NCBI GenBank assembly: GCA_903944345.1
Contig: CAJARJ010000002.1
Location: 1,969 to 65,968 of the forward strand
Source: Candidatus Omnitrophota bacterium
GTDB taxonomy: Bacteria > Omnitrophota > Gorgyraeia > Zapsychrales > Fredricksoniimonadaceae
Length of the DNA stretch: 64,000 nucleotides
Reading direction: 5' to 3'
In this document: positions 1 to 25,085 of the stretch, one piece after another
Layout: each line of letters opens with the position of its first letter
Numbering within the stretch: position 1 is the stretch's first letter
Notes under the pieces: model-generated
The model's input: the letters and a program-made list of their open reading frames with translations, nothing else
The model's database searches: none
What the model was told of the DNA's origin: nothing
Made by a program: the position numbers and the translations under genes

Positions 1-486
1 CTGTGCCCAAAAAGCTTTCCCCGCCTGATCCTCAGGATACATAAGAGAAGAAGTAAACTGCTTGAGCAAATAATCCTGCGCCAAAAGATCGCGCCCCATC
101 TGGGTTCCGGCAAAATTATCCGGAATAATCCTAGTGCTCTCATATGGAGACAAGTTAACCCACATATCATTGTTGGGAGTCGTCAGCGAAGCCAGAAAAT
201 ACTTGATCAGCTTGCTATACTCATTTTCCTTTATATCCGCGTCAAGGGCCTGCTCGCCCTTGTTCATAACAAAATAAAAATTGAACGGATTTTTGAGATC
301 CATCCGCATTCCCACCATGCGGGCAGGAGCAAACGCCACAGTCACCGGCGCCATTTCGCCCGGGGCTGGCATTGGAGCCACTACCTGTGCAAAGCCGCTT
401 TGCGCGGGAATCATCGCCAGCAACGACCCGATAATAGTCACGGCCAGGCTCTTGAAAAGACTCCATCGAATAAACTGTTGAAACAT
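1..486 (-). CDS. Partial CDS (N-terminal ~162 aa; C-terminus lies beyond window start) of paralogous large secreted protein family (copy P0); start codon at 484-486
   Basis: Reverse-complement translation from 486 gives MFQQFIRWSLFKSLAVTIIGSLLAMIPAQSGFAQV... (signal peptide). It then follows the N-terminus of the 683..4222 protein almost residue for residue. Nucleotides 1..486 align to 3786..4222 at roughly 80% identity. Confidence 0.6.
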   Translation of the reverse strand, partial: MFQQFIRWSLFKSLAVTIIGSLLAMIPAQSGFAQVVAPMPAPGEMAPVTVAFAPARMVGMRMDLKNPFNFYFVMNKGEQALDADIKENEYSKLIKYFLASLTTPNNDMWVNLSPYESTRIIPDNFAGTQMGRDLLAQDYLLKQFTSSLMYPEDQAGKAFWAQ

Positions 487-620
487 ATACTTCCTCCGTT
501 GATTATAAATAACCGGAATCTGCCTTTAACCCTGACTTTATTGAATAAAGAAATCGAGGTTACTCCGGCCGCCATGTTACCTTTTGTAGATTTGTGTAAG
601 TATATAGCATAGAATGACAA

Positions 621-648
621 AAAACAAGGCCGGAGCAAAACTCCGGCC
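621..648 (-). terminator. Rho-independent terminator downstream of 683..4222 CDS
   Basis: Inverted repeat GGCCGGAG-caaaa-CTCCGGCC at 628-648, preceded on the + strand by AAAAAACAA (621-627), which is a U-rich tract on the minus-strand transcript immediately after the stop at 683. Confidence 0.5.
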
Positions 649-682
649 TCATATAGCACAAATAACTACTATTGTTGGGAAC

Positions 683-3600
683 TTACCTTACAGCCATCCG
701 CATCAAATCATTCAAAACCGGCAAATTCTGTGGCGTGACCGGACCGATCTCGCGAATGATCGGCGACAGCCCTTCAATATTCACCATGGCCGGATCCTGC
801 ATGGAAGCCGGTAAAGGCATCCCCGCTCCGTCCACCTTGATATTGATCTTCAAATACTTGTCGCTCATCGTGATACCACCAACGTCGTCCTGATCTGCGT
901 TTGCCCGGATACCCGCCTGGGCCCTGGTTGACAAACGATCCCTGACCGCTTGCGCTGTCTCTTGCGCTGCCCGCATAACATTCTCTGACTCCTGAAGCAA
1001 CCGTTCCTGGGCCATATAATTACTCACAATATTCGGCGCAACCTGAATTTCTGCAAGCTGCTTGTCCAGGCGACCAATCGACAGATTCAAACGATTCATA
1101 TCCCGGCCGATACGAGCCAAACTCTTGCCACGGTTCAACCCGGTGCGTTCAGCATCATATCGCGCCTGAAACCCGGCCAAAGCCTGCTCCAACACTCCTC
1201 GACTAGCCACAATCCCTTGCGCCTGCCCTAAACCTGCGGCACTCATTTGCTCAAAACGCGCAGCCAGACCTTCAATTGAACTTCTTTGTCCTTCCAGCTG
1301 GCGCGTTTTGTTCAGGCTCTCCCGCATCTGTCCCACCGAAGAAAGAACTTCCTTCAACTGTGTGCGCTGCGCATCAAAGACCTGCCCGAGAGCGCCAACT
1401 TCCAGCTTCTCTCCAGTCTGCTCCTGCCCCCACGCCACCGCCTCACGAAACTGATCCAACTGGCGCGTCACCACATCCAGGGCCTTGACTCGCTCGGCAG
1501 AAAGGCTCTGGATCTGCTTGAGATTATCTGCAATCTGCTGTTTAAGTTCGGCCGACTGATTCTCCAAAACCTCCACATCAGCATCCGGATCTGCCGCCAA
1601 TGCCGAAGACATGTTTTGCTCCACAAGCCGCTGACGTTGTTCGAGAGCACTGTTCTGAGTCCTGATGGCTTGCTCTCTGGTATTCCAGACGGCAGATTCA
1701 TCTCCTACGGCCTTCTCCAGAGCCGCTTGCGTGATATTTGCATCCCGATCAGTCAGAATCCGCAAATTATTTTCCATCGCATCAATACGTGCAATCCGCT
1801 CATTAACAGCCTCGACCTGCGCCTGCAAATCGTTTCTGGCCGCGGAAGCCGCAGCCAGCACCTCCGGTACTCTTCTAACCTGACCGCCAAGACTCTCCGA
1901 CATCCGGTCAATTCGCGGAACTTCGACCGCTACCGGACGGGCAATTTCAGGCAAACGGAATTCAGTCTGCTGAAGAATCGGCTTTTGCGGAGCTTGCGGA
2001 GCTACAGGTGTCTCGGGAGCTTCCGGCGCCGCAACCGCTGGACGAGCCGCACCGGCTGCAGAACGAACCCCGCGCAATAAGTCTCTTAATTCCTGCGGGG
2101 TCACTATTTGATCTTCTGCAATCCGGCTAAAACTGTCCGCCAGATCTTTATCATCTTGAGCACGTGCACTTAAAGCCTTCGCCTCACTGTCTGCCGCCTG
2201 GGCTGCCGCCTGGGCCGCCGCCAATTTATTAGCTTCTTTATTACTCTTGAGCTGCCGGGCTTTACGACGAACCCAGGCCGCACCCCAACCCATAAAACCG
2301 CCACCCAAAGCCCCCAAAGCATAAGCCATCAAGCCGTCATTATTCTGGCGAGCCAACTGAATAACTGCTTTTACCTGATCCCCAGCCGAAGAATCTCCCC
2401 GCTCCAGCGCTGTAGACGCTCCCAAAATCTGCTCGGCATAGGACACGGAAGCACCCCATTCACTGCTCTTGGCTTGCCAATCAGTTGCCACCGCCTCCAG
2501 ATCTGCTGATCTGTCCTCAAGCTCTCGGGCTGAATCACGAAGTCGCCCAGCAGAAACATCACCTGACTGTGTCGCCGCACCTGCAATCGTCGAAGCAGCA
2601 GTATCTCTAACCCTATCGGAAGCGCGTACCGCTGCCTGGGCCTTGCCTTGAACTTCCTTCGTTGAAGCAGCGATGGCTGTTGTATATGTTTTTCCGTTGC
2701 GCTGCCAGAGAAACGTATCAACTCCTGCTCTGCGCGCGGCAGCAAACGCCTGGGAGAAATTACCATCAAATGTCCGCAAGACTCCTCCCGGCGCTGTTTT
2801 TCCAGCACCAGCTCTGGCCTCCCGCTGCTGCACGCGCTCGACCAGCATCTCCTCTGCCAACCGCTGATCCGGCTCCGACAACTGAGAATACTTCCCTCCC
2901 CCGGCAAGATGCGAACGCAAAGCCTCGCGCACCTGTTGGGGATTAGACACCAGCTCTCGCTGGTCTGTATCCTGAAGCGCCGATGCCGTGGCTGCAACTA
3001 CCGGAGAAGCCGATGTGGCACTCAAGATCAAAGCCAGTGCTCCGGCGGCAACTGTCGCCAAGGTGACCTGTGCGGCATCCAGACGTGAATCCGCCGCCGC
3101 AGCCTGCAGAACCGGCGCGGCCCGCTGAGGGCCGACCGCACGGGCAGTCCTATCGAAGTCAATCGGCAAAGCTCCCCCGGAGAAATACTTGCGCGGCAGC
3201 ATTTCCTGTGTCAAGGGATCCATGTCTTCCTTGATATAGTTGAAGACACCAATCTTGTAAGCCTCAAGGTACTGCTGATAAATCTTTTCGCGAGCCTGTG
3301 GATCATTAACCTCAACTCCGGCCACCTTGCTCTTGTCCGCATACACCTGTCCCAGCAAGCTTTCTTTAAGTGTCTTTTTAAACCATGCCGCAAGAATCAT
3401 CGAATTATAAATCTGGCGTACCTGGGCAAAATTGGAGCCTTCATTAACTTCTTTTTCAATAATCGGAATAATCACCTCACGCACCACATCCGAAGCAATC
3501 TTGCGCGCGGCATCTGTTTCCCCCGACTGATCCTCGATCACATTACCGAACATCTCCTTGTTCTCCTCGATCGCCATGAAATCCTGCTCCATCATGACCT

Positions 3601-4222
3601 TCAAATGGCTGTCCACCAAAAACACGGTGTCATCTTTCTGATAAATATCCGCACGGTCTGGAACAATCCACACCTTGTTAAAGGTATCCACCGGAATATC
3701 GGTCGTGCCAAATTCTTCCTGCGCCCGGGAATAAACCCGCTCCCAGAAAAGTTTCCCGGTCTCGTCCTCGGGATACATGAGTGACGAGGCAAACTGCTTG
3801 AGCAGATAATCCTGCGCCAGCAAATCCCGGCCCATCTCGGTCCCGGCAAAGTTATCCGGGATAATCCTGGTGCTTTCATAAGGAGACAAGTTGACCCACA
3901 TGTCATTATTGGGAGTCGTCAGCGAGGCCAGGAAATACTTGATCAGTTTGTTATACTCGTTCTTCTTTATATCCGCTTCCAGAAACTGTTCGCCCTTGTT
4001 CATGACAAAATAAAAGTTGAACGGATTTTTGAGATCCATCCGCATCCCCACCATACAGGCCGGAGAGAATGAACCGGAAACAGCGGTCATTTCTCCTGGA
4101 GGTGGCATGGGCGCAATCACTTGGGCATAACCCGATTCAGCAGGGATCATGGCAATAAAAGCCGCAAGCACCACAAAGGTGACCCCTTTAAACCAACGCC
4201 AATGTAAAAGGTTCTGGAACAT
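683..4222 (-). CDS. Large secreted protein (copy P1, ~1179 aa from MFQNLL start at 4222): signal peptide, conserved family N-domain, ~700 aa Ala/Gln/Glu/Arg-rich coiled-coil centre with Pro-rich linker and Gly-rich hydrophobic segments, conserved C-terminal DPAM...GLSPII motif
   Basis: Single long ORF (track 683..4327). Internal Met at 4222 gives a signal peptide ending AESGYAQ. The N-domain contains KYFLASLT, DMWVNLSPYE, TDIPVDTFNKVWIVPD and PRKYFSGG, which recur in 18134..20812 and 20916..25085. The low-complexity heptad-like centre reads as coiled coil. Confidence 0.7.
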   Translation of the reverse strand: MFQNLLHWRWFKGVTFVVLAAFIAMIPAESGYAQVIAPMPPPGEMTAVSGSFSPACMVGMRMDLKNPFNFYFVMNKGEQFLEADIKKNEYNKLIKYFLASLTTPNNDMWVNLSPYESTRIIPDNFAGTEMGRDLLAQDYLLKQFASSLMYPEDETGKLFWERVYSRAQEEFGTTDIPVDTFNKVWIVPDRADIYQKDDTVFLVDSHLKVMMEQDFMAIEENKEMFGNVIEDQSGETDAARKIASDVVREVIIPIIEKEVNEGSNFAQVRQIYNSMILAAWFKKTLKESLLGQVYADKSKVAGVEVNDPQAREKIYQQYLEAYKIGVFNYIKEDMDPLTQEMLPRKYFSGGALPIDFDRTARAVGPQRAAPVLQAAAADSRLDAAQVTLATVAAGALALILSATSASPVVAATASALQDTDQRELVSNPQQVREALRSHLAGGGKYSQLSEPDQRLAEEMLVERVQQREARAGAGKTAPGGVLRTFDGNFSQAFAAARRAGVDTFLWQRNGKTYTTAIAASTKEVQGKAQAAVRASDRVRDTAASTIAGAATQSGDVSAGRLRDSARELEDRSADLEAVATDWQAKSSEWGASVSYAEQILGASTALERGDSSAGDQVKAVIQLARQNNDGLMAYALGALGGGFMGWGAAWVRRKARQLKSNKEANKLAAAQAAAQAADSEAKALSARAQDDKDLADSFSRIAEDQIVTPQELRDLLRGVRSAAGAARPAVAAPEAPETPVAPQAPQKPILQQTEFRLPEIARPVAVEVPRIDRMSESLGGQVRRVPEVLAAASAARNDLQAQVEAVNERIARIDAMENNLRILTDRDANITQAALEKAVGDESAVWNTREQAIRTQNSALEQRQRLVEQNMSSALAADPDADVEVLENQSAELKQQIADNLKQIQSLSAERVKALDVVTRQLDQFREAVAWGQEQTGEKLEVGALGQVFDAQRTQLKEVLSSVGQMRESLNKTRQLEGQRSSIEGLAARFEQMSAAGLGQAQGIVASRGVLEQALAGFQARYDAERTGLNRGKSLARIGRDMNRLNLSIGRLDKQLAEIQVAPNIVSNYMAQERLLQESENVMRAAQETAQAVRDRLSTRAQAGIRANADQDDVGGITMSDKYLKINIKVDGAGMPLPASMQDPAMVNIEGLSPIIREIGPVTPQNLPVLNDLMRMAVR

Positions 4223-4380
4223 AACGCCTCCGTTTATAAAGCCCGCAAAAAACACTTTCTTTATCTTAGAACGACGCAGCCACAAGAAAGTATGTCTGAT
4301 AATTGACAAGAAAACAAGCAGGATCAACGAAGAAAAACAGGACTCACGACCAGAATGAAGGCGGATGTCATAATATGTAA

Positions 4381-5214
4381 TTATATGCAGTCAGCAGAAG
4401 AAGAAACTATGACAATTCCGGCACGATCGGCCAGAGAAACGGTGCGTTCCCGGTCAATAACAAGAGTACGTTCAGCCTCAATGCACAAACAGCCGCAGCG
4501 AGCACGGCGCATATGCTCAATGGTACGCGGGCCAATAACCGGAACATCAAAACGACTGTCCTGCTTGGGCTTGGACATCTTGACCACCACCGCCCCCTCA
4601 CGCGCGATCAGTCCTCCACGCGTTATGCAGCGGTCAGTTCCCTCCATAGCTTCAATAGCAACAATAGCCTTGCCCTTGACCACCACAGTCTGACCAACAT
4701 CCAATCCCCCCATCTGCCGGGCCAAATCAATACCAAAAGAGATATCGGCCAATTGTTCTTCAGTCGGGGCTTTACGGGTCAGAGTCCCTCGAGGCGCCAG
4801 AAACTCCCTGAGCAGCAGGGTAGAATCCAGAAGTTCCATTCCTTCTGCCTTCAGGCGATCGGCTACCGCGCCAAAGATCGTATCGCAGCGGCGATCCGCC
4901 AACGCTGCAAACAAAGCCCGGTAATCCTCGTCCACCGGGCGGCGATTGTTAAACAATGTATCCGGATTGATCTGCCCGGCCATAATGACGTGCCGCAGGC
5001 CTCGCTCCCGAAAAAAAGCAAAAAAACGACGCATCTCACCTGGAGTAAACCAGCGGACTTCATCACTGCAGAAATGAATTAAAAAAGACGCGTCCCCTCT
5101 GGCGGCGGCGGTAATGACTTTAATCCCCTGACGGCGGGCTGCCTGGGCAAACAAAAGAGGGAAACGTCCGTTACCGGCAATAAGGCCAATCTGGGAAGGC
5201 AAAGAAGAAGGCAT
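4381..5214 (-). CDS. lpxI: UDP-2,3-diacylglucosamine pyrophosphatase LpxI (DUF1009 family)
   Basis: N-terminus IGLIAGNGRFPLLFA is typical of LpxI. Sits immediately downstream of lpxA with start/stop overlap at 5214. Confidence 0.7.
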   Translation of the reverse strand: MPSSLPSQIGLIAGNGRFPLLFAQAARRQGIKVITAAARGDASFLIHFCSDEVRWFTPGEMRRFFAFFRERGLRHVIMAGQINPDTLFNNRRPVDEDYRALFAALADRRCDTIFGAVADRLKAEGMELLDSTLLLREFLAPRGTLTRKAPTEEQLADISFGIDLARQMGGLDVGQTVVVKGKAIVAIEAMEGTDRCITRGGLIAREGAVVVKMSKPKQDSRFDVPVIGPRTIEHMRRARCGCLCIEAERTLVIDRERTVSLADRAGIVIVSSSADCI

Positions 5215-6020
5215 CAGTCTCCGTCGCCGACTGTCGAACCACTTAATATGCCCCGCTCGGACGATTTGATAAACTGCACCAGATGCCTGAGCTCGGCCGT
5301 CTGCTCAATCTCCTGCTCGATACGTTCAACGGCTGTAGAACGAGCCAGGCCGGAATTAAAAACCAGCCGGAAGGCTTCCTTGAGATTCTTGACCGCGGAA
5401 AGCGGCATTTTGGCCCGCTTGAGCCCCACACTGTTAATCCCATAAACCGCGGCCGGCATACCGACTGACAAGGAAAACGGAGGAACGTCCTGAGTAACAC
5501 GCGAACAGCCGCCAATCATGGAAAACTTGCCCACACGGGTAAACTGATGGATCCCCACCAGTCCGCCTACGATAACATTGTCTTCCACCAGCACATGCCC
5601 CGCCAGTGTGGCCGCATTGGCCATAACACAATCACTGCCGATCTGACAGTCATGCGCCGCATGCGCATAGGCCATAAACAAATTATTATTGCCAATACAT
5701 GTTACTCCGCCACCGTCAAGGGTCCCGCGGTGAATGGTCACAAACTCCCGGAAAATATTATTGTCCCCGATCTCAAGCCGGGTCTGATCCCCGCGCCGAT
5801 GCTTTTTGTCCTGGGGATCCTGGCCAATTGAAGCGCTGGAAAAAATCCGGTTCAGCCGGCCGATCACCGTTGTTCCACTGATCATGCAATGCGCCCCGAT
5901 TTCGGTTCCATCACCAATGGTCACGTCACCTTCTATAATCGTGTATGGGCCGATCACAATATTATCTCCGAGTTTGACCTCTGGAGCAATAATGGCTGTA
6001 GAATGAATGCTATTTGACAT
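5214..6020 (-). CDS. lpxA: Acyl-ACP--UDP-N-acetylglucosamine O-acyltransferase
   Basis: Hexapeptide-repeat protein starting MSNSIHSTAIIAPEVKLGDNIVIGPYTIIEGDVTIGDGTEIG, in lpx cluster context. Confidence 0.9.
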   Translation of the reverse strand: MSNSIHSTAIIAPEVKLGDNIVIGPYTIIEGDVTIGDGTEIGAHCMISGTTVIGRLNRIFSSASIGQDPQDKKHRRGDQTRLEIGDNNIFREFVTIHRGTLDGGGVTCIGNNNLFMAYAHAAHDCQIGSDCVMANAATLAGHVLVEDNVIVGGLVGIHQFTRVGKFSMIGGCSRVTQDVPPFSLSVGMPAAVYGINSVGLKRAKMPLSAVKNLKEAFRLVFNSGLARSTAVERIEQEIEQTAELRHLVQFIKSSERGILSGSTVGDGD

Positions 6021-6029
6021 ATCTCTCTC

Positions 6030-7337
6030 TTATCCGCCGAAAGCAAAACCCATTTCAGCTTCACAAACAACTTCGCCGTCCACCTTGCAGACCCCTTTGG
6101 CCTGTGCTACCCGGGAACGTGCCTTGATCACTTCAACTTCCATCACAACCTGATCTCCAGGCTCAATCACCTTTCGAAACTTGACATTATTAACTGACAT
6201 AAAGAACGCCAGCTTACCTTTAAGTTCCGGATTTGAAAGCATAACCACACCCGTCACCTGGGCCATGGCCTCGACCATCAGAACGCCAGGCATGACCGGA
6301 CGCGCCGGAAAATGTCCCTGGAAAAACGCTTCGTTCATGGTCACATTCTTGATCGCCACCGCCCTTTTACCCACCTCAATCGAGATAATACGATCAACCA
6401 GCAGGAAAGGATAACGATGCGGAATAATATCCATAATACCCCGGACATCAATCCGGCCATCAGAAGATTCGTTAATCCTCCTCTGAACACGCGTTGACTC
6501 GTAACGCTGTTTCTGTTCAAAGATCTTCTTGAGCAGGGCACGATTGAGCGCATGCCCGCTTTTGAACGCAAACACATGCCCCTTAAGGGCAATCCCAAGC
6601 AAATAAAGATCCCCGACACAATCCATCATTTTATGCCGAGCCGGCTCGTCTACAAAGCGCAAGGTGTTATGCAATACGCCCTGGGGGCCGAACACCAGCG
6701 TGTTTTCGTAACTGGCTCCCTGCCCCAGTCCCTTGGCCCGGATCGCATCGGCCTCATCCGCCAGGCAAAACGTGCGGCAGGCGGCCAACTCTTTCTGAAA
6801 GATTTCCGGATTGATCGCAAATGTGCAGGACTGCTTGAGCAAAGGATGCGGATAATCCAGAGAATAAGAAACCCGAAAATCTTCTGCCGGAACGATGGTG
6901 ACACAGGCACCTTTATCGGACACCGTAATAGGTTCACGAATAGCGAAAACATTCTTTTCGGTCTCAAGCTCACTGACCCCCGCCGACAACAAGGCTTGCA
7001 AAAAAATATCCGCGCTGCCGTCTCCGCCGGGAGGCTCGTCATTGTCCATCTCGATACGGATATTATCGACACCCATTCCTGAAAGAGCACTCATCAGATG
7101 CTCGACAGTATAAATAACCGCTTCTCCCCGTTTAATCGCCGAATAGCGGCCGCCTTCCATGCCATGAATCACGTCGAAAGACCCCAGAGTAATCGGCCCC
7201 TCCGCAAGCTTATCAGTACGAACAAAAATAATTCCGGTCCCTGCTGGCGCCGGCTTCATGGTAAATGACACCGGATGCCCGGTATGCAGTCCCTTGCCTT
7301 GCAAGGAAATTTCTTTGGCAATAGTCCTCTGCTTCAC
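6030..7337 (-). CDS. lpxC/fabZ: Bifunctional UDP-3-O-acyl-GlcNAc deacetylase / 3-hydroxyacyl-ACP dehydratase (LpxC-FabZ fusion)
   Basis: N-terminal LpxC (KQRTIAKEISLQGKGLHTGHPV...). C-terminal FabZ hot-dog (IPHRYPFLLVDRI...FFQGHFPARPVMPGVLMVEAMAQ). Confidence 0.9.
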   Translation of the reverse strand: MKQRTIAKEISLQGKGLHTGHPVSFTMKPAPAGTGIIFVRTDKLAEGPITLGSFDVIHGMEGGRYSAIKRGEAVIYTVEHLMSALSGMGVDNIRIEMDNDEPPGGDGSADIFLQALLSAGVSELETEKNVFAIREPITVSDKGACVTIVPAEDFRVSYSLDYPHPLLKQSCTFAINPEIFQKELAACRTFCLADEADAIRAKGLGQGASYENTLVFGPQGVLHNTLRFVDEPARHKMMDCVGDLYLLGIALKGHVFAFKSGHALNRALLKKIFEQKQRYESTRVQRRINESSDGRIDVRGIMDIIPHRYPFLLVDRIISIEVGKRAVAIKNVTMNEAFFQGHFPARPVMPGVLMVEAMAQVTGVVMLSNPELKGKLAFFMSVNNVKFRKVIEPGDQVVMEVEVIKARSRVAQAKGVCKVDGEVVCEAEMGFAFGG

Positions 7338-8963: not shown

Positions 8964-11402
8964 TTAGAAACCTCGGCTCACGCTGAAATAAAACTTTCCG
9001 GTCTTGCTCTTTTCATCCTCGTCCGGCTGACGATCCAATGGAATACCGTAATCAAGATTCATTGGTCCGATCGGGGTCTTGATTCGCAAGCCTATCCCGT
9101 ATCCGGCATAAAGGCGGTTGGAAGCAAAATCACTGTACTTTGACCAGACATTCCCGATATCAAAGAAAGTAGCAAACTTGATTACGTCAATCAGCGGAAT
9201 AGTATATTCAACACTGCCCACCAGAATTGATTCGCCACCTATCGGATCCTTGGTGTTGGCATCGAGCGGCCCGATGGAACGCTCATCATAGCCACGGATT
9301 GAACGGGCACCACCGGAGAAATAGCGTTCAAAAATCGGAACCTTGCTGGTATCGCCATAGGCGCGAACCATGCCCATGCGCCCGCTGATCTCCAGCACCG
9401 AAGCAAAGTTGAAAGGAACATAGTACGCCCCGTTGGTTTCCAGACGATAGAAATCCTTGTCGCCCGCCATCGCCCCTCCGGCCAGATCAGAAGACACGCT
9501 GGCCAGCCAGCCTTTGCTCGGCGCAAGGCGATTATCCCTGTGATCCTCGGTCAGCGAACCACCGATTGAACTGACCACATTCTTCCCCTCTTCGGCCTTC
9601 AGGTCCGCTGAAACATCAGACTCCATATCACTGATCTCGATATTTTCCAGGCGGTAGTATCCGGCCGCAGAAAGATATTCGGAGATCTCCTTGCCAAGGC
9701 GAAGCTTTCCTCCTGTACGAACCTGATTATAGGCATACCCCGTATCCGCCTCGCGCTCGTGCTGCATACGATAAATATCAAACCCGGCAGAAACCGGATA
9801 ATCAAACAGCCAGGGCTCGGTGAACGACAGGATCATATTGTTTCTGGTTGATCCAAACTCCGCGCGAGCAGAAACAGTCTGTCCTCCACCAGTAAAAGAA
9901 GGCCAGTTCGAAAAATCGAAATTTTTCTGCTCAACCTCTACAAAGCCGATCAACTGATCAACGGTCGAATACCCGCCGCCAAAGCTGAAAGCCCCGGTCT
10001 TGGCTTCCTTGACATCGACCACGAGATCTTTCTGATCCGGCACATCCGTGTCTTCGATATCAAAAGCAACATCCTCGAAATAACCGAGGCTGTTAAGCCT
10101 TTCCTTGCTGCGGCGCAGCTTGACCCCGTCAAACTGTTCTCCAGGATACATACGCAATTCCCGACGAATAACAATATCGCGAGTCTGGGTGTTGCCCTGG
10201 ATAAGAACCTTGTTGATATAGGCAATATTGCCTTCGACAATCTCCAGTCGCAAGTCAACTTTTCCAGTATTCGTGTCAAGAGATGTTGACTCGTTAACCC
10301 GGGCAAAAATATAACCCCGATCAAAATAAAGAGTTTTTACGTTAGCCAAATCATCCGCCAGGCGGATCTTGGAAAAGATACGGCCAGGCTTCATGTCTTT
10401 CATGACGGCATTAATCTCATCAACTGAAAGAACAAGATTTCCTGTCAAGGCAATATCCCCGATAAAATAACGCTGCCCCTCGTCCACCTGAACATTTAGA
10501 TTCATCAAGCCGCCGCGCACCTGCTCGATCTCGTAAGTGACCTTGGCATCAATGTAACCTTCTTTTTCGTAAAACGCCTGAACCCGCTCCATGTCTTCAT
10601 TGACTACATCATCCTTAAGGAATCCCGAATTAAGAAGCCAGGCATTGCGGGACTTCATGGCTTTGATGATACGCCCATCCTTAAAAGCCGTGTTACCAAA
10701 AATATTGATCCGGCGAATTCTGACCCGGAAGCCTTCGTCCACAACAAAATGCAGCGTGGCCTTGTTGGTTTCATCATCAACAAAGGTTTCCACGTCAATC
10801 TCGGCCTGGGTCAACCCCTTTTTGTGGTACATTTCCCTGATTGTGTTCAAATCATCATGCAGAACCTTGCGATCCAGAAATTTTCCCGTCTGGGTCTTGA
10901 GCTTGGACAAAAGCACTTTTTTCCCGAAATAGCGAATCTTGGAAAAAGTAATCTCGTCGATAATCGGCTTTTCGTCGACTGCGATAATGACCCGAACGCC
11001 ACCGTCTTCATCCTTGCGATCAAGACGCACATCCGAGAAATAGCCGGTGTTATAAAGTCTTTTAAGGTCGTCGGAAATAACATTCTGACGGTATTCCTGT
11101 CCAACACGAGTCCTGATCTTGCTTAAAATTGTCGCCAGGCCAATGCTGCGATTGCCCTGGACGTCCAGAGCCTTGACAAACCGGCCTGTTGCGTCTTCTG
11201 GCAACTGGCTTTCGGATGCATCCGGCTCCTGAGCATCAACCTCAACGTCAGCCTCGACTTCTTGCCCGACAACAGCACTCTGGGCTTCGTCCAGCGCCCG
11301 CTGAACCGGATCATCTGCCGGATCAGCCGCACGCGACAAGGAAGCCGTCAAAAGAAACGAAAGACACACAACAATGGTAGTCAGGGGGGTAGTTTTTTTC
11401 AT
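8964..11402 (-). CDS. bamA: Outer membrane protein assembly factor BamA
   Basis: Signal peptide MKKTTPLTTIVVCLSFLLTASLSRA (start codon at 11400-11402), POTRA-like repeats, and a C-terminal beta-barrel ending in an aromatic-rich ...YFSVSRGF. The ORF-track upstream extension to 11789 is unlikely to be translated. Confidence 0.85.
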   Translation of the reverse strand: MKKTTPLTTIVVCLSFLLTASLSRAADPADDPVQRALDEAQSAVVGQEVEADVEVDAQEPDASESQLPEDATGRFVKALDVQGNRSIGLATILSKIRTRVGQEYRQNVISDDLKRLYNTGYFSDVRLDRKDEDGGVRVIIAVDEKPIIDEITFSKIRYFGKKVLLSKLKTQTGKFLDRKVLHDDLNTIREMYHKKGLTQAEIDVETFVDDETNKATLHFVVDEGFRVRIRRINIFGNTAFKDGRIIKAMKSRNAWLLNSGFLKDDVVNEDMERVQAFYEKEGYIDAKVTYEIEQVRGGLMNLNVQVDEGQRYFIGDIALTGNLVLSVDEINAVMKDMKPGRIFSKIRLADDLANVKTLYFDRGYIFARVNESTSLDTNTGKVDLRLEIVEGNIAYINKVLIQGNTQTRDIVIRRELRMYPGEQFDGVKLRRSKERLNSLGYFEDVAFDIEDTDVPDQKDLVVDVKEAKTGAFSFGGGYSTVDQLIGFVEVEQKNFDFSNWPSFTGGGQTVSARAEFGSTRNNMILSFTEPWLFDYPVSAGFDIYRMQHEREADTGYAYNQVRTGGKLRLGKEISEYLSAAGYYRLENIEISDMESDVSADLKAEEGKNVVSSIGGSLTEDHRDNRLAPSKGWLASVSSDLAGGAMAGDKDFYRLETNGAYYVPFNFASVLEISGRMGMVRAYGDTSKVPIFERYFSGGARSIRGYDERSIGPLDANTKDPIGGESILVGSVEYTIPLIDVIKFATFFDIGNVWSKYSDFASNRLYAGYGIGLRIKTPIGPMNLDYGIPLDRQPDEDEKSKTGKFYFSVSRGF

Positions 11403-11505
11403 GGGCGTAATTATACTTTCCCGCGAAAGCCGTGTCAAAAGGATAAAAACAAATATTAGGAATGTAGCCGGGGGCACCCAAAACACTTGGCCTGAAGAAA
11501 ACGGT

Positions 11506-17963: not shown

Positions 17964-18133
17964 AGCGCAACATTTCTACGGCGGCTCTTTGCACGCTTCC
18001 CTATATAAAGAAGAAACGGGCACACTCTTGAATTCAGCAATATATAAAACCGCCAAAGAGCGCTAGTATAGCCGACACTTTTTCTTTCGTCAAGAATTAA
18101 ACCCGAAGGGCTCGCCCGACAACTCTTTCACTC

Positions 18134-20812
18134 TCAAATCCCGAGGAGATCTGCCGGATTCGCAACAGGAACGATCCTCAGAATCTCGCCCTCCAGTCCG
18201 ACAAAATCTTCCCGTTGAAACGCTGCAAGCATGGCTGGATCAAAGCTCATCGTGACCGCATCCGCAGAACGCTCACGTTCCATAGCCATCGCGTACGGAT
18301 CAAGACTAATACCGCCCGGAGCCTCTTTTTTCTTGGGGACATCATCTTCATAATCTGAATATAGCCGCACGCCCAGTCCAAGCCCCAGCAGAGACTGAAA
18401 CAGGTTTTCTGCAGCTCCCTTGCCCGGATCGCGCGCGCTGTCTCCATACAAAAGCAGCCGCCTCCAGACACCATCCCACTGGCGCCCACTCAAGGCAGCA
18501 GGACGATAAGTCACCCCGTCATTCAGATAAAGAACCGACTTTTCAATTCTCAGATCGCCGGAAAGTCTGTCCAGATTCAAGCCCGGATTAATACGCTTAA
18601 ACTCCCTGGCATTTACCGCTCCGGACGGATAACCAGCCATAATAACCGCCGCTTCCCGGGCACTCACTCTTTTGGTCAGCAAAGAAACAAAATTATCTCC
18701 CTCTCTCCGGGAGATATCCAGAGACACCTCCCTTTGGTCCCAGGACGAAAGACGCACCCGGTATTCGATCCCCAGAAAAACAACTCGGGCCTCATCCCTG
18801 CGCTCATTAATCTGCAAATCACTGACATGCACATAGCCATCTTTAAGAGTATCACGCAGTTTTGCGATATAGCCCGTACGATTTTCGTCGGCGGGCAGAG
18901 GGTCGTCAAGGCGGGTCTGCCATCTTTTTTTCACCACCGGTTGCTGATCCACCCCGGAAACAATGTCTTCCGTCGTCGGCCTGGACTCACGATCCTGACG
19001 CATTTGCAGAACATGTCGCCGGTTCCTGAAATAACGGCCGATGGCCTCGGCATACTGCCCCGAAAGAAAAACACGCAGCTCCCCCCGGTTGATCGACATG
19101 GCATTGGCTATAACCGCAGACGATTCGAACAAACGCTCTGCATCAACCGCAATAGAAAAAATATACCCGGGCACTCCCTGACGTAAGGAAGCCTCCTGGT
19201 CTTTTCTGAAAAGAATTTTGTAAACTTTCCCGGAGGCCGCAGGCGGAGTCTGAAAATAGACCTGGTCTTCTTCCCGGATCTTCACTGCCTGCTGAGAAAA
19301 GGCTCCGGCGACAGGCTGCATATCCTTGATAACCGATAAAAACTCGTCGAGCCAGGGATACTCGTCCGCTTTAACGTCAAGGATCTGCGCGCTGTCGATC
19401 ACATCCGGCTGGCGAATCATTGTAAACACCGCCCCCCGGCGGGCAATACTGTAAAAACCTTGAGCAACTCCCTGTTCTTCAAAGAATGCCGCGATATCGT
19501 TTACCCCGGTCTGATGAAACGGAATACTGAAATCCCGCTCTGCTCTTTCTACACCGTCCGGGAACAATTGAACCATGGCCGAAGCATTCCATTGCCCGCC
19601 CCAAGCTGCAATTTCATCAGCAATAAAATGCATCACCTCCGGCAAATCACCAACAAGAACGTCCTCCGCCATTGCAGCATCTCCGGCAAAAACCTGCCGG
19701 CCCATAACCGAAACCAAAGCCAGCTTGCCGGAAGCAAGCTGGGCGCGATCCGCCTCGGTAAAAAACCTGTCACGTTCCAGCACCCGGGATAACTGTACAC
19801 CGTCAACTCCGCCGGAGAAATACTTTCTTGGAACCGACTGGCCCTGCGGCCCCGATTCTTCCCGGATATAATCAAAGACACCCTGACGAAACGATTGCAG
19901 ATACTGTTCATAAATCTTCTGCGCCGACTGCGGATCCCGGGCCAGCACCCCGCCCGTCTTGCCGCGATCACTGTAAACCTGGTTCAGCAGAGCGTCTTTG
20001 AGCGCTTCTTTATACCAGGCCGCCAGAATCATGGCGTGAAACATCTGCCGAAGCGCGGTGAAATGCCGCCCCTGATTGACTTCCCGCTCTATCTCCGGAA
20101 CAATAACCTCACGAACAACACTTTTCGTCCATTCCTGCGAAGGCGCTTTCTTCTCGCCGCGGGCTGCCTGATAATCCGATTCCAGCATCACCTTAAGATG
20201 TGCCTGCGCAACAAACACCGAGTTCCCCCGCTCAACCACCCGCGCCCGGTCGGCGACAATCCATACCTTGTGAAAGGTATCCACCGGAATATCCGTCGAG
20301 CCAAACTGCTCCCTTGCCCGCGCATAAACCCTCTGCCAGAACGCCTGTCCCAACGCCTGTTCGGGATACAAGAGGGATGCCGTCAGCTGTTTGAGCACAT
20401 AATCCTGTGCGAGCATATCCTCTCCCAAACGGGTACGCGCCAAGTCCGGTTCTGCCATCCGCTCGCGTTCGACAGGAGACAAATTAACCCAGAGATCGCT
20501 CTCCTTGACCGTCAGGGCGGCAAGAAAATATTTAACCAGTTTTTGCGCTTCTGCCCTGAAATCTCCTCCACCAATGGCAAACCCTGACTGTCCCGGATCA
20601 ATCATAAAGTCAAACCGGAGCGGCTGCTGCGGATAAACTCTCAAGCCTTTAAGCGAAACCGGAATATACGGCTGACTTTGCGCCAACATGGAGCCAGGGG
20701 CCGGCAAACCCGCAATCTGGGCCTGCGCTGGAGCAGGAAAAGAACTTCCGGAAAGAAAAATCAAAGCCAGCGCCAACCGTGCGGCGCAATGAAAAAGAGA
20801 ATCATAATTCAT
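18134..20812 (-). CDS. Large secreted protein (copy P2, ~892 aa): signal peptide, conserved family N-domain, unique central region, conserved C-terminal DPAML motif
   Basis: Signal peptide MNYDSLFHCAARLALALIFLSGSSFPAPAQA. N-domain contains LRFDFMIDPG, KYFLAALT, DLWVNLSPVE, TDIPVDTFHKVWIV and PRKYFSGG. C-terminus reads GGISLDPYAM...SFDPAMLAAF. Confidence 0.65.
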   Translation of the reverse strand: MNYDSLFHCAARLALALIFLSGSSFPAPAQAQIAGLPAPGSMLAQSQPYIPVSLKGLRVYPQQPLRFDFMIDPGQSGFAIGGGDFRAEAQKLVKYFLAALTVKESDLWVNLSPVERERMAEPDLARTRLGEDMLAQDYVLKQLTASLLYPEQALGQAFWQRVYARAREQFGSTDIPVDTFHKVWIVADRARVVERGNSVFVAQAHLKVMLESDYQAARGEKKAPSQEWTKSVVREVIVPEIEREVNQGRHFTALRQMFHAMILAAWYKEALKDALLNQVYSDRGKTGGVLARDPQSAQKIYEQYLQSFRQGVFDYIREESGPQGQSVPRKYFSGGVDGVQLSRVLERDRFFTEADRAQLASGKLALVSVMGRQVFAGDAAMAEDVLVGDLPEVMHFIADEIAAWGGQWNASAMVQLFPDGVERAERDFSIPFHQTGVNDIAAFFEEQGVAQGFYSIARRGAVFTMIRQPDVIDSAQILDVKADEYPWLDEFLSVIKDMQPVAGAFSQQAVKIREEDQVYFQTPPAASGKVYKILFRKDQEASLRQGVPGYIFSIAVDAERLFESSAVIANAMSINRGELRVFLSGQYAEAIGRYFRNRRHVLQMRQDRESRPTTEDIVSGVDQQPVVKKRWQTRLDDPLPADENRTGYIAKLRDTLKDGYVHVSDLQINERRDEARVVFLGIEYRVRLSSWDQREVSLDISRREGDNFVSLLTKRVSAREAAVIMAGYPSGAVNAREFKRINPGLNLDRLSGDLRIEKSVLYLNDGVTYRPAALSGRQWDGVWRRLLLYGDSARDPGKGAAENLFQSLLGLGLGVRLYSDYEDDVPKKKEAPGGISLDPYAMAMERERSADAVTMSFDPAMLAAFQREDFVGLEGEILRIVPVANPADLLGI

Positions 20813-20915
20813 AGCAATCACTCCATATTGCATATTTTATGCGCGATTATGGCACATACTGTCAGAATATGCAAGCAAACGCAACATGCCTTGTCGCCCT
20901 TTTATGCCACACACC

Positions 20916-23900
20916 TTACCGCAAAGCAGTCGTAACTGCGGGAATAGAAGCAACGGAAGACCGGCCAAAAAACTGATCAAAATCAACGGCCTCTCGAATA
21001 GAAAGAATAACCGGGCTCAGGCCATGCGCATTACGAAAACTCTCCAGCATAGCCGGATCAATGTCAAACTCAATCTCGCCATCAGCAGAAATTCTAAACG
21101 CAAGGGACTGCGGATTAAGATCAATACCGCCCTTGTCGGCAGGGTAATCTGACAAAAACGATACGCTCTCAGACTCTTTTGTCATCCCTGGCCGGGATAA
21201 TATTCTGAAAGAAATCTCCCGCTTTAACATCTCTTTCACATCATGACTGATCAATGGATAAACAAAAATTCCTCGGTCCTGACCGCCGGCCTCATGCACA
21301 AGCGCATGTTTTTTGACAACCTGACGAAAAATGGCCACCATCGGAGCAAGTCGCACGATATCGTGCTGTTGGCGACCAAACAAGGCATCTGTCGATGCGA
21401 GAGAAACATCGTATCTCCGGGAGAATTCACTCTCAAAATATGCGGCAACGCGCTCGTCTATACTTCGCAGAGTGTCCCGTGTGTCGTGCATCTCATACAA
21501 TCCCCAACCGAGCTCATCCTCACGGGACAACCTTCCCTCCTCAAAAGGTTTATGATCAAAGAATCCCGGTTTCCTGGTATCCTGACAAAAACCGAAGTCT
21601 ATCAGCACAAGATGCCCGTCCGATGCGAAGCCAACGTTCTCTATCGCAAAATCCCGGTCGAAGACCCCCCTTTGCCAAACCGCTTCCATCAATTCGAAAA
21701 ACATATCCACGAAAGAATTTCCCAAACGCCGGATATCTGCTTCGCTTACTTCCCGCACGCGAAGTGTCGCCGCCATGTCATCACGAATGCCCTGCCCGTT
21801 GGGCTGAATGAATCCTCGTTTGATGATCAGGAACGGAGGCACGAGTCCTCCCAATCGCGAATACGCCAGTTCAAATGATTCCCACGTCTTTGTCCAGCTA
21901 ATACCGTACATTTCTAACATACTGTATGGATGATGATGTGGAACTTTTATCCCGTAATCCCGTTCCGGATCAATATAGAAATACGACTGCTTGCCTTCTT
22001 TTCTGACCGCAGATACGCCAAAAGATAAAAGTTGACCCGAAATCATTCCGGTTGCCGAATCTCCGATCCACGACTGGAAATCCTGTTCTGCCGCGAATCC
22101 CAATCTTGACAAAATATCCTGACTTAAGGGGTGCCCTCTTTCCATGTCATCCACCAACTTTCCGGCAAGGAACTCTGAATGACTCCGGGAACCGCCCCCC
22201 ACAGCATCGATCCGTTCTATCGCGTTGTCAGAAAGAATATTTGTTGCCCCTATAAGTACGGGGGCTACTGCGGAATCAATGATTACACCTGGCGAATTAT
22301 CCTGATCAATGATCCTGCGGACTCTCTCCTCTGCCGATAATCTTTCGAGAACTTCTGGTGCAGGCACCTTAAACGCAATATTACCCCCCTGGTCCCATCC
22401 TTCCGACTTGAACCATCGATCCTCTGACCTGACAAGCAAATCAACACGTGACACACCCTCGGCAGGTAAAGGAAACCAGGCATAATAGTCACCTTGCCCA
22501 TCTGCGGCCAGTATCGTATCAATCGTCCCGTTGCCGTTAACGGTCGAGGGATACACATCATCCAACATCACCAAAGGGGGCTTCCGCCATTCATTAATAC
22601 CCCAATGCAGGGTTAACTGTTCGTCCGGTGCCCCCTGAAACCTGACGCCAAACTTCAACCCCCTTTCATCAGGCTCCAATACCAGACTCAACTCATCTCC
22701 CCGCGAAGTTCTTATCGTTTTAGACCTCCAGGGGGGGGCGCCTTGCGTCGGATGATCAGCTGCTGGCAGCGCTGATCCGGAGATATTCGTATCCGGCTTT
22801 CGAAGAACATACAGTTGCGGACTGGTCCTGCTTATGAAATACTTGCCCGGAATAGAATAATTTAGTGATTGCAATCCTTCAAAATCCGCCGCCTGCAATA
22901 ACAAATGCGTAAGTCCACCAAGCACAGAGTACCCGCCCGGTTTCAAGGCATTCCGGAGATGCCCGACCAATTCCTTAGCCTGAGACCTTGTTGCGACCTG
23001 ATGATTAAAGCCCCCTCCTGTTGAAGTGATGATATCCATGCCTCGAACAAGCTCCTCCAAAGGGTCACGCATCAAATCCGCCTGAACGATATGGAGTGCA
23101 CTTTCCAGACGAGCCGACATTGATTCCAAACGGGAGATATTGGCTCCGTTTTTCTCAACCAGCCAATATTCAATCTCCGGCACCGGCCTGGACAAAAACG
23201 CATAATGCCTGCGAATGGCCTTATCCATCTCCAGCACAAGACCTCCGTCTCCTCCAAAAATATCCGCAATCCTGATGGCTTGTCCGGGACGAATCCGGGA
23301 CAACTCGTCAACAAGCCCAACGACCGCCTGCACAACATAAGGATATACTTCCTGCGCATAAAGCAGTCTTACCGCCAGAAGAGAACTCCCCCATCCATTC
23401 CAGTAAGTGTCGGGCAACAACTCGGATTCTGCAATATGGGTGGAATTAAATTCAAACTCATCTCCCATAAGTAAAGAAAAAAGAGCCCTGAGCTGCAGAT
23501 TCCTGCTGTCTGTTTTTTCCAGCTTTATTTCGGCGTACTGTCGTGTGGCCGGAAGATACCAGAATATTGTCCGGCGCCCTCGATTAAATTTTCCGTCTGC
23601 CCAATAAAGCACCAGATGCCGGTTAGTCAGACGGAATGATTCTCCGGGATAAAACGACAACACCTCAGAAAGATCCAGTGGCATCGCGGGAGATGCCCCC
23701 TTGGGAAGATCCCCTATGGAAACTACATCTCCCCAAAGACCATCCAGAGTCTTGATCGTTTCAAGGATACGTTCCGCCCGTACCTGCCGGGACATCTCCC
23801 AGGGGCCAAAAACACCTTGCCGGAACGTCACCCGGGTATCCGCATTAGCTTGTGCGCTGTCTTCCCCGTCGAGAAGATATTTTGATGTCGAAACATTATC

Positions 23901-25085
23901 CAAAGAACCCGAAGATAAATCCGTACTGAAATTGACCTGTGAACTCACCATCAGATAATCATTTGACCAGGACAATTGAGACGCATCAGGCTCAAGCGTG
24001 TTTACAAGAAGCACCGCCATATCCATTCCCACGCCCCCCGAAAAATACTTTCTTGGAACAGCACCATCCGGGTAAACATTTTCTTCTTCCCGCACCAGGC
24101 TGAAAGCTCCCTGCCGAAAAGACTCGACATACCTCTGCCAAATCTTCTCTGCTTCCCCGGGGTCTTCAATTTTAACTCCGGCGATCTTGTTCTGATCCAC
24201 ATACACCGCCGTGAGCAGGGACTTTCTGATTTTCTTCTTGTACCACGTGGCGAGGATCAGGGATTGATAGACCTGTCGCAAAGGCGCGAAATTGGCCCCT
24301 TCGTTGACTTCCTGCTCCAGTACCGGAACAACCACTTCGCGCAGGACGGTTCGGGCGATTTCCTGGGCACCGTTGTCAGATGAACCGTCGGGCTGAAGCA
24401 AGACAAGGCTGTCATCAGTGCCAGATACAGTCCCGGCCTCTCGCGCAGAAGCAACATAGTCAGCATCCAGCATGACCTTGAGCCGGGAATCGGTAATGTA
24501 CACCGCTCCCGCCTTGACATTCTCATAGACTTCCGCTTTTTCCGGAACAATCCACACCTTGTTAAACGTATCCACCGGAATGTCGGTAGTACCATATTTC
24601 TCCTGCGCCAGAGCGTAGACTTTCTGCCAGAACCTTTTGCCTGTTTCCCCTTGCGGATACAACAACGTGGCGGTGATCTGCTTGAGAATATAATCCTGCT
24701 CCAGAAGATCCCGGCCCATTTCGGTCTGGCCAAACGCTTCAGGAATAATGCGGTCTTTCTCATACGGGCTTAAGTTCACCCACAGGTCTTTCTCGGGAAT
24801 GGTCAGGCTGGCGAGAAAATATTTGATGAGTTTCCCGGATTCCTGCCGGGCCGACACAAGGTCGGCCTCTGCGCCTGATCGGGTTCCCGGATCAAGAATG
24901 AAATCGAAGCGAAGCGGCTCTTTTGGGTACACCTTAAGCCCTTTAAGAACAGCAGGATGAGACGCTGAAAAAGGATTGAACACCCCCCCAGGTGCAGGCA
25001 GAACGCTCTGGGCATAACCCGGTTGCAGGCTATTGGCCGCAAAAGCCAGAAGAAGAATAAAACAGAAACCTTTTCTCAGAAACAT
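20916..25085 (-). CDS. Large secreted multidomain protein (copy P3, ~1389 aa): signal peptide, conserved family N-domain, Rossmann/SAM-MTase-like motif, CBM25/CBM53-like module, protein-kinase-like (Brenner motif) domain, conserved C-terminal motif
   Basis: Signal peptide MFLRKGFCFILLLAFAANSLQPGYAQ. N-domain motifs as in P1 and P2. IRIADIFGGDGGLVLEM resembles methyltransferase motif I. TLHWGINEW...WDQGGNIAFKV resembles a starch-binding CBM25. FDRDFAIENVGF...HLVLIDFGF resembles a HxDxxxxN...DFG kinase core. C-terminus reads GGIDLNPQ...DPAMLESFRNAHGLSPVILSI. Confidence 0.65.
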   Translation of the reverse strand: MFLRKGFCFILLLAFAANSLQPGYAQSVLPAPGGVFNPFSASHPAVLKGLKVYPKEPLRFDFILDPGTRSGAEADLVSARQESGKLIKYFLASLTIPEKDLWVNLSPYEKDRIIPEAFGQTEMGRDLLEQDYILKQITATLLYPQGETGKRFWQKVYALAQEKYGTTDIPVDTFNKVWIVPEKAEVYENVKAGAVYITDSRLKVMLDADYVASAREAGTVSGTDDSLVLLQPDGSSDNGAQEIARTVLREVVVPVLEQEVNEGANFAPLRQVYQSLILATWYKKKIRKSLLTAVYVDQNKIAGVKIEDPGEAEKIWQRYVESFRQGAFSLVREEENVYPDGAVPRKYFSGGVGMDMAVLLVNTLEPDASQLSWSNDYLMVSSQVNFSTDLSSGSLDNVSTSKYLLDGEDSAQANADTRVTFRQGVFGPWEMSRQVRAERILETIKTLDGLWGDVVSIGDLPKGASPAMPLDLSEVLSFYPGESFRLTNRHLVLYWADGKFNRGRRTIFWYLPATRQYAEIKLEKTDSRNLQLRALFSLLMGDEFEFNSTHIAESELLPDTYWNGWGSSLLAVRLLYAQEVYPYVVQAVVGLVDELSRIRPGQAIRIADIFGGDGGLVLEMDKAIRRHYAFLSRPVPEIEYWLVEKNGANISRLESMSARLESALHIVQADLMRDPLEELVRGMDIITSTGGGFNHQVATRSQAKELVGHLRNALKPGGYSVLGGLTHLLLQAADFEGLQSLNYSIPGKYFISRTSPQLYVLRKPDTNISGSALPAADHPTQGAPPWRSKTIRTSRGDELSLVLEPDERGLKFGVRFQGAPDEQLTLHWGINEWRKPPLVMLDDVYPSTVNGNGTIDTILAADGQGDYYAWFPLPAEGVSRVDLLVRSEDRWFKSEGWDQGGNIAFKVPAPEVLERLSAEERVRRIIDQDNSPGVIIDSAVAPVLIGATNILSDNAIERIDAVGGGSRSHSEFLAGKLVDDMERGHPLSQDILSRLGFAAEQDFQSWIGDSATGMISGQLLSFGVSAVRKEGKQSYFYIDPERDYGIKVPHHHPYSMLEMYGISWTKTWESFELAYSRLGGLVPPFLIIKRGFIQPNGQGIRDDMAATLRVREVSEADIRRLGNSFVDMFFELMEAVWQRGVFDRDFAIENVGFASDGHLVLIDFGFCQDTRKPGFFDHKPFEEGRLSREDELGWGLYEMHDTRDTLRSIDERVAAYFESEFSRRYDVSLASTDALFGRQQHDIVRLAPMVAIFRQVVKKHALVHEAGGQDRGIFVYPLISHDVKEMLKREISFRILSRPGMTKESESVSFLSDYPADKGGIDLNPQSLAFRISADGEIEFDIDPAMLESFRNAHGLSPVILSIREAVDFDQFFGRSSVASIPAVTTALR

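Follow-up and report, generated by a model that had tools for sequence, protein, structure and literature searches.

A 64-kb stretch of contig CAJARJ010000002.1 from Candidatus Omnitrophota (hereafter the window) carries four minus-strand genes, P0 to P3, of a protein family in which two conserved ends enclose a middle part, here called cargo, that differs from member to member. The ends are a domain of ~320 aa behind a Sec-type signal peptide (N-domain) and a domain of ~62 aa at the extreme C-terminus (C-domain). They form an obligatory pair, and comparison of the sequences indicates that the cargo is swapped by recombination while the ends stay constant. The family is undescribed in the domain libraries and literature searched, and so far we have found it in Omnitrophota only. 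We consider it about an even bet that the paired ends act as a chassis that is exported by Sec and sorts or anchors surface or effector cargo.

Two conserved ends that occur together

A preliminary description of the window had placed four open reading frames (ORFs) of this kind at the positions given below, and all four are found there. The ATG starts chosen in it agree with the family alignment and with a canonical signal peptide; the program-made ORF starts lie farther upstream (TTG 4327 for P1, ATG 20833 for P2 and TTG 25112 for P3). The genes and their conserved parts are as follows.

1..486, minus strand: P0, 5' part of the fourth family gene (162 aa), reaching from the signal peptide to the end of the N-domain's first half and cut by the window edge
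683..4222, minus strand: P1, complete family member of 1179 aa (ORF and BLASTP)
4124..4222, minus strand: P1 signal peptide, residues 1-33, predicted cleavage between GYA and Q, with basic n-region, hydrophobic core (Kyte-Doolittle 1.86) and small-x-small site
3173..4123, minus strand: P1 N-domain, residues 34-350, ending in PRKYFSGG (alignment and BLASTP)
686..880, minus strand: P1 C-domain, residues 1115-1179, GGITM...IKVDGAGMPLP...GLSPII (hidden Markov model (HMM) match, E 9.2e-5)
18134..20812, minus strand: P2, complete family member of 892 aa (ORF and BLASTP)
20720..20812, minus strand: P2 signal peptide, residues 1-31, site predicted from the sequence between AQA and Q
19808..20719, minus strand: P2 N-domain, residues 32-335 (alignment and BLASTP)
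18137..18316, minus strand: P2 C-domain, residues 833-892, GGISL...FDPAML... (HMM match, E 2.9e-12)
20916..25085, minus strand: P3, complete family member of 1389 aa (ORF and BLASTP)
25011..25085, minus strand: P3 signal peptide, residues 1-25, site predicted from the sequence between GYA and Q
24033..25010, minus strand: P3 N-domain, residues 26-351 (alignment, BLASTP and AlphaFold2 model)
20919..21131, minus strand: P3 C-domain, residues 1319-1389, GGIDL...IDPAML...GLSPVILSI... (HMM match, E 1.4e-18)

The N-domains of the three complete genes are clearly homologous in BLASTP (P1/P3, 48% identity over 351 aa, E 3e-101; P2/P3, 47% over 361 aa, E 2e-94; P1/P2, 46% over 327 aa, E 3e-94), P0 is 76% identical to P1 over 162 aa (P1 residues 1-162), and against other family members the N-domains of P0-P3 reach E values down to 1e-145. 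The proposed paralogy of a ~320-aa N-domain in all four genes is thereby substantiated: every block quoted for it is found in the alignment, and identities of 46-48% (E 1e-94 to 1e-101) lie well above the 25% below which the likeness was to be regarded as an artefact. Behind the signal peptide the motifs follow in the order LPxPG ... WVNLSPYE ... PRKYFSGG, and the invariant columns include WVNLSP.E, D.Y.LKQ and Y.F.GG. In many members PRKYFSGG is followed by an extension of ~45 aa whose pattern closes with ...V.V(D).AM (for example residues 352-395 of P3, at ~23900..24030 of the window); since it is weakly conserved and absent from P0006, a minimal member from another genome, it may be an optional extra element of the N-domain.

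A cleaved Sec signal consists of a basic n-region, a hydrophobic core and a small-x-small site and leads to export from the cytoplasm. Among family members, 312 of 319 have a hydrophobic core upstream of the LPxPG motif; the core comprises 12-15 residues, the n-region is basic, and a small-x-small site followed by Gln is common, typically AxA before Q. Because the N-termini show this pattern, the signal peptide is predicted to be cleaved in the Sec pathway and the mature protein to be located outside the cytoplasm.

At the other end of the protein, pairwise similarity among P1, P2 and P3 is weak (35-38% over ~50-67 aa, E 0.002-0.014), and for this reason the C-domain was tested with a 66-position HMM built from members in other genomes only and searched against 494 six-frame ORFs of the window. 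Just three of these matched, namely P1, P2 and P3, each at its extreme C-terminus, and the C-terminal motif previously seen in the three complete copies is thus borne out by a model lacking window sequences. The family consensus of ~62 aa reads GGIDL - x~25 - (F)DPAML..LQNAPGF.PVIINIQP..L..FLG; its first GG and the GG of PRKYFSGG are invariant in all three family alignments. P0 and P1 have a C-domain subtype, IK(R/V)DGAG(V/M)PLP, which also occurs in other metagenome-assembled genomes (MAGs; loci L012, L025 and L038).

The C-domain of P0 lies beyond the window edge, in the source scaffold (L084 13737..17688), where the gene continues to ~1,300 aa in all and ends in a C-domain of its own (E 2.4e-10 with an HMM built without window sequences). 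Consequently, all four genes have the N-domain with a Sec-type signal peptide, and a single C-domain stands at the extreme C-terminus of P1-P3 and, in L084, of P0. Over residues 1-420 P0 is 73% identical to P1, and its last 485 aa, which take in the distal coiled-coil-like region, are 57% identical to P1 694-1178, with a differing centre. Full-length P0 also contains a tandem PVVVDA repeat that the assembly does not span, leaving a 100-N gap within L084 13737..17688.

The family is present on more than 597 genomic stretches in one-genome-per-species contigs, of which the best 80 were used for all analyses of loci. Both domains were found on 62 ORFs from these 80 loci, where most C-terminally complete members end in the ~62-aa C-domain and no ORF has two of them. 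Thirteen ORFs had the C-domain only; twelve of these are cut by the locus start or lie directly behind a split N-only ORF, and in the remaining one (L080) a weak, partial match (E 5.6e-4) is truncated by the locus end. A single C-domain was counted in 123 of 135 further representatives, its end lying a median of 6 aa before the C-terminus. P0006 (438 aa, on five contigs) consists of the two domains and a short Ala/Pro-rich linker between them. On the basis of these co-occurrence counts, the single C-domain per protein and P0006, the N- and C-domains are an obligatory pair.

Splits into N-only and C-only ORFs by one in-frame stop or frameshift were seen at L026 4691/4695, L079 3741/3751 and L001 11743-11860, and in L033, L038, L044 and L046. 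These splits may reflect pseudogenes, recoding or errors of assembly, L001 being from a long-read contig rich in errors.

Exchangeable cargo between the ends

Between the conserved ends, BLASTP found no mutual similarity among P1, P2 and P3, in agreement with the unrelated central regions noted before. The following segments were distinguished.

881..3172, minus strand: P1 cargo, residues 351-1114, an Ala-rich stretch, a transmembrane (TM)-like segment at 386-416 and then a long helical region (hydrophobicity and composition)
18317..19807, minus strand: P2 cargo, residues 336-832, no recognisable domain (library scans)
22920..23330, minus strand: P3 S-adenosylmethionine (SAM)-methyltransferase-like module, residues 586-722 (PADLOC mad2, E 1.2e-5; Pfam Methyltransf_25, E 0.19)
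22392..22721, minus strand: P3 immunoglobulin (Ig)-like domain of the alpha-glucan water dikinase N-terminal type, residues 789-898 (Pfam Ig_N_CWD1, E 0.002, below gathering score)
21567..21785, minus strand: P3 protein-kinase-like catalytic loop and DFG motif, residues ~1101-1173, DRDFAIEN...IDFG (weak library matches)

The helical region of P1 is rich in A, R, Q, L and E and coiled-coil-like by composition, and residues 795-987 weakly match the SMC-like LmuB (PADLOC, E 0.0013); apart from P0, no relative of this cargo was found among ~380 sampled family members, and there was no PDB match. The P2 middle, which had been called unique, is indeed without a match in Pfam, NCBIfam, PADLOC, PHROGs or PDB sequences and without a relative among the same ~380 members. 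For P3, the earlier labels gain weak but convergent support from the methyltransferase-like, Ig-like and kinase-like matches, the last of these comprising the kinase part of NCBIfam LanL (E 0.001), PADLOC PD-T4-6 (E 1.4e-4), PKC iota in the PDB (E 0.0035) and Pfam Pkinase (E 0.1). A module of ~350 aa (P3 residues roughly 415-770, including the methyltransferase-like part) recurs in two other family members, P0219 and P0312, at differing positions.

This diversity extends across the family. In 231 complete members the cargo measures 13-2,405 aa (median 659), and 190 of the 231 cargoes (82%) lack a TM-like segment. Cargo similarity at E<1e-5 was detected in 145 of 27,261 pairs (0.5%), in a sample whose N-domain identity averages 69%. 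Two paralogues of one MAG (L042 and L059) have N-domains that are 91% identical and cargoes that are unrelated. The sequences thus indicate exchange of cargo by recombination between constant ends. A cargo census, based on Pfam scans of 41 + 49 full-length members and on precomputed annotations of shorter members, includes SAM methyltransferases, protein kinases, HATPase_c, GNAT acetyltransferases, Fic, Zeta toxin, GGDEF, NUDIX, adenosine deaminase, glycosyltransferase 1 (GT1), Bac_transf, HAD, PPDK_N/glucan-water-dikinase modules, YkuD L,D-transpeptidase, HEAT and TPR repeats and helix-turn-helix (HTH) domains.

Novelty, extent and surroundings of the family

A search of 1.84 billion representative proteins with an N-domain profile returned 8,401 clusters at 50% identity with E<=1e-3, 6,819 of them with E<=1e-30. 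The 150 best matches are proteins of 435-2,816 aa, and their N-domain begins no later than about residue 50. Family members are annotated as hypothetical protein in the source records, and the passages of the Omnitrophota giant-protein literature matched by term do not mention the N-/C-domain pair. The idea of an undescribed system therefore stands in so far as no description was found in the libraries and literature searched; as a local four-gene system it does not, since at 50% identity the family comprises no fewer than 8,401 clusters.

Neither conserved end gave a match when the full proteins were scanned against Pfam, NCBIfam, PADLOC and PHROGs, in line with the preliminary description, which could assign the N-domain to no family; in particular, no model in the Pfam and NCBIfam copies searched matches it. 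With sequence profiles of the PDB, the N-domain had no match and the C-domain none with E below 1. Lenient scans of 50 N-domains and 50 C-domains brought up two recurrent candidates, neither of which was accepted: DUF896 (14 of 50, best E 0.0057, sub-threshold) and, for the C-domain, COMM_domain (6 of 50, best E 0.0017, below the Pfam gathering score). The likeness to the eukaryotic COMM dimerisation domain is at most a lead to a possible role of the tail in dimerisation or oligomerisation.

The structure prediction and fold search suggested for the N-domain were carried out on P3. The AlphaFold2 model is alpha/beta, with three beta-hairpins and several long helices (predicted local distance difference test (pLDDT) 73.6, predicted TM-score (pTM) 0.66), and no PDB fold matches it. 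A model of P0006 with both domains reached pLDDT 76.1 and pTM 0.71 (C-domain pLDDT 81-85), and shows extra short strands in its N-domain, e.g. at the invariant WVN, which are absent from the N-only P3 model.

As to its range, the preliminary description had taken Desulfobacterota for the related genomes to be searched. This placement is not tenable, as the named relatives of the window DnaB at 76-82% identity are Candidatus Omnitrophota/Omnitrophica. The best 80 loci come from MAGs titled Omnitrophota or Omnitrophica, or from 'binchicken' MAGs titled uncultured Planctomycetales, and, except for a few records that are metagenomic or probably mis-binned, all named N-domain homologues belong to Omnitrophota. 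Two MAGs have at least seven family genes each, and tandem arrangement is frequent. The window itself is identical to metagenome scaffolds of up to 630 kb, the exact P1 protein is found on 9 metagenome contigs and the exact P3 protein on 13 contigs, and tblastn detected no fifth copy in the 64-kb window.

The two gene pairs of the window had been described as bracketing an lpx/bamA/ribosomal/glmU block. The gene content of this block is confirmed (LpxI, LpxA, LpxC-FabZ, LpxD, Skp, BamA, DnaB, L9, S18, SSB, S6, Pth, L25, Prs and GlmU); its significance is not, for in 751 clustered flanking ORFs from the 80 loci no neighbour family occurs in more than 5 of the 80, and the position beside the block is incidental. 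A functional link of the lpx/bamA block to the family was rejected, as the neighbours differ in other loci. Within the block, the lipid A pathway uses LpxI (4381..5214, minus strand), not LpxH, and LpxC is fused to a FabA/FabZ-like dehydratase in one 435-aa ORF (6030..7337, minus strand). The BamA ORF (8964..11789, minus strand) has 941 aa from a GTG; since metagenome gene calls give 812 aa and the ORF overlaps that of DnaB, the true start is probably downstream of this GTG. A gene of 822-834 aa with LemA, DUF2207 and DUF2207_C lies directly upstream of P3 on the same strand (25152..27656, minus strand), and a sigma-70-like promoter match, by consensus only, is located just upstream of the P3 start (25092..25120, minus strand). 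One further element lies between the genes of the first pair.

624..652, minus strand: strong terminator-like hairpin (13 pairs and then a run of T) in the gap that separates the P1 stop from the P0 start (consensus match only)

This hairpin suggests that P1 and P0 are transcribed separately.

Omnitrophota are ultra-small, uncultured bacteria of wide occurrence and are suspected of being epibionts or predators of other microbes. With thousands of members and many copies per genome, the family is a concrete and easily searched candidate for their effector or surface repertoire. Both domain families are absent from the Pfam and NCBIfam copies searched, and HMMs of the end domains can serve as handles to catalogue cargo from metagenomes, to look for the sorting machinery by phylogenetic profiling and to design proteomic tests.

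Proposed export and destination, and known systems

In the proposed sorting or anchoring chassis, Sec would export the protein to the periplasm, where its signal peptide would be removed, and the N- and C-domains, probably docked, would jointly form the module that a conserved envelope component or sorting machinery of the producer recognises. The cargo would thereby be displayed at the cell surface or handed to a host or prey cell. Since the ends are constant and co-vary (Spearman 0.79 between N-domain and C-domain identity across 27,255 pairs) while the middle is freely exchanged, the ends probably recognise an equally conserved partner, and the variable function would lie in the middle. At least part of the family is probably active in the cytoplasm of another cell, because many cargoes need ATP, SAM, acetyl-CoA or GTP; to our knowledge, the periplasm does not supply nucleotides, SAM or acetyl-CoA. 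Delivery into another cell would fit the predatory or host-dependent lifestyle proposed for the phylum in passages of two sources (PMC10066038; 10.1101/2023.11.21.568195), the first of which also describes ultra-small, host-dependent or predatory traits, and the RNA of a predatory Omnitrophota member inside dead archaeal prey cells reported in a passage of a third (PMC13153191). Going further, we tentatively suggest, as a minority expectation, that the paired ends are the substrate signal of an unrecognised, Omnitrophota-specific route that takes dozens of interchangeable ATP-, SAM- or acetyl-CoA-dependent enzymes per genome across the outer membrane into host or prey. The invariant SGG and GGIDL junctions may be sites of cargo release.

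Several points weigh against the chassis proposal. No recurrent neighbour or secretion-machinery gene was found in the 80 loci, where the commonest neighbour family occurs in five. Shared ancestry, not physical interaction, must account for part of the correlation between N- and C-domain identity, and the hint that the two domains dock to each other comes from differences in pLDDT, pTM and secondary structure between models of different proteins with different multiple sequence alignments. The statement that the ends have no known fold is provisional, because both models are of moderate confidence (pLDDT 74-76). Furthermore, most scanned cargoes lack a recognisable Pfam domain, so that the census describes a minority of them, and cargo domains of cytoplasmic type could instead mean that there is no true export.

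Among the alternatives, the best surviving one keeps the proteins in the producer's envelope: the N-domain would bind peptidoglycan, lipopolysaccharide or an outer-membrane component, and the cargo would serve to remodel, signal or form scaffolds within the periplasm or envelope of the cell that makes it. A Sec signal indeed delivers no farther than the periplasm, linked secretion genes were not found in the 80 loci, the high conservation of the N-domain and its many invariant polar residues are what one would expect of a domain that binds a conserved component of the producer, and some true periplasmic enzymes or scaffolds are present among the cargo (YkuD L,D-transpeptidase, TPR, HEAT). We nevertheless regard residence in the envelope as unlikely, given the many cargoes that need ATP, GTP, SAM, acetyl-CoA or nucleotide sugars or that bind DNA (kinases, Fic, Zeta toxin, GGDEF, GNAT, methyltransferases, GT1, NUDIX, HTH), and tens of paralogues with unrelated cargoes are hard to square with housekeeping.

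The same repertoire raises the question of whether the proteins leave the cytoplasm at all or are cytoplasmic or inner-membrane-tethered multidomain proteins of signalling or metabolism. GGDEF, HATPase_c, HTH, GT1, NUDIX and methyltransferase domains would suit such a location, and passages of a 2026 preprint on Omnitrophota giant proteins describe a similar conflict between signal-peptide/TM topology predictions and cytoplasm-type enzyme domains (10.64898/2026.06.07.730766). However, the basic n-region, the core of 12-15 residues and the small-x-small site before a conserved Gln are the signature of a cleaved Sec signal, the positive-inside rule places the remainder of the protein outside the cytoplasm, and 82% of the cargoes lack a TM-like segment by which they might return, which makes absence of export improbable.

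More improbable still is a classical polymorphic toxin system of the CDI (contact-dependent inhibition), Rhs or MafB type, serving interbacterial competition with cognate immunity genes. The family shares with TpsA/CdiA, Rhs and MafB proteins a conserved N-terminal trafficking module, recombining variable modules and tandem arrays, and a few recognised toxin folds (Fic, Zeta toxin) occur among its cargo. In contrast to those proteins, its variable region is internal and closed by the conserved C-domain, which occupies the C-terminal tip where a toxin module would be expected, and the 80 loci contain neither a linked partner Omp85 gene nor a recurrent small downstream gene as immunity candidate. 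In the window, there is no adjacent TpsB, as the only nearby Omp85 gene is of the BamA type, with several POTRA domains, in an Skp/LpxD operon. Most identifiable cargoes are not known toxins, many being repeat scaffolds or coiled coils. Pfam and NCBIfam scans gave no Rhs/YD, two-partner secretion (TPS), LXG or PT-type domain; this includes the TPS haemagglutination beta-helix domain in Pfam, and the N-domain model is a helix-rich alpha/beta structure.

Membership in a known class of secretion substrates, be it type IX secretion system (T9SS) cargo, autotransporters, two-partner exoproteins, PEP-CTERM or other sortase-type substrates or S-layer proteins, is the least probable explanation of all, with very little in its favour beyond a formal likeness to T9SS cargo. 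In Bacteroidota, T9SS cargo proteins carry a Sec signal and, at the C-terminus, a small sorting domain; a genome encodes tens of such paralogues, whose cargo is very diverse. The Omnitrophota family resembles them in its Sec signal, its C-domain of ~60-70 aa at the extreme C-terminus, its many paralogues and its diverse cargo. It differs by its phylum and by the obligatory 320-aa N-domain that co-varies with the C-domain and that T9SS cargo lacks; T9SS sorting-domain models (Por_Secre_tail type) matched neither the full proteins nor 50 isolated C-domains at E up to 10. Models for autotransporters and inverse autotransporters, PEP-CTERM, GlyGly-CTERM and other sortase-type signals, and SLH or S-layer domains also gave no match in Pfam or NCBIfam. 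Where an autotransporter has a 12-stranded beta-barrel, the C-domain has only ~62 aa; its alignment shows neither the TM helix nor the basic Arg/Lys tail of sortase-type signals, and the N-domain model is neither beta-barrel nor beta-helix. The resemblance to surface-layer proteins seen in the preliminary description finds no support, as the census of cargo speaks for enzymes and repeat scaffolds and not for a lattice protein, and tens of paralogues with enzymatic cargo argue against S-layer membership.

As a design analogy only, the family may be compared with the Crinkler (CRN) effectors of oomycetes, in which a signal peptide and a conserved header at the N-terminus, to which delivery is attributed, are combined with enzymatic modules, for instance kinases, that recombine. 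Signal peptide, conserved header and shuffled enzymatic modules are common to both, whereas CRN effectors are eukaryotic, unrelated in sequence and without a conserved C-terminal domain. Closer in origin are the giant proteins of Omnitrophota (Archaeovorins, Dockerin-type), which passages of two preprints present as predicted exported or membrane-associated proteins with cytoplasm-type enzymes, HEAT repeats and methyltransferases, of 10,000 aa and more, flanked by type II secretion system (T2SS)/Tad-like loci and read as tools for prey or host interaction (10.1101/2023.11.21.568195; 10.64898/2026.06.07.730766). As far as those passages allow a comparison, the N-/C-domain family shares with them the phylum, the predicted export, the mixed domain content and the proposed role towards prey or hosts, and differs in the size of its proteins (0.4-2.8 kaa among the members listed), in having no conserved neighbours and in being far more numerous. 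Taken together, T9SS cargo and the two-partner and polymorphic-toxin proteins are the closest design analogues, yet the family fails the defining tests of each that were examined in sequences and models. Interchangeable cargo combined with conserved trafficking ends is as such a known principle; new are the two domain families, the obligatory enclosure of the cargo from both sides, the restriction to Omnitrophota and the scale of the family.

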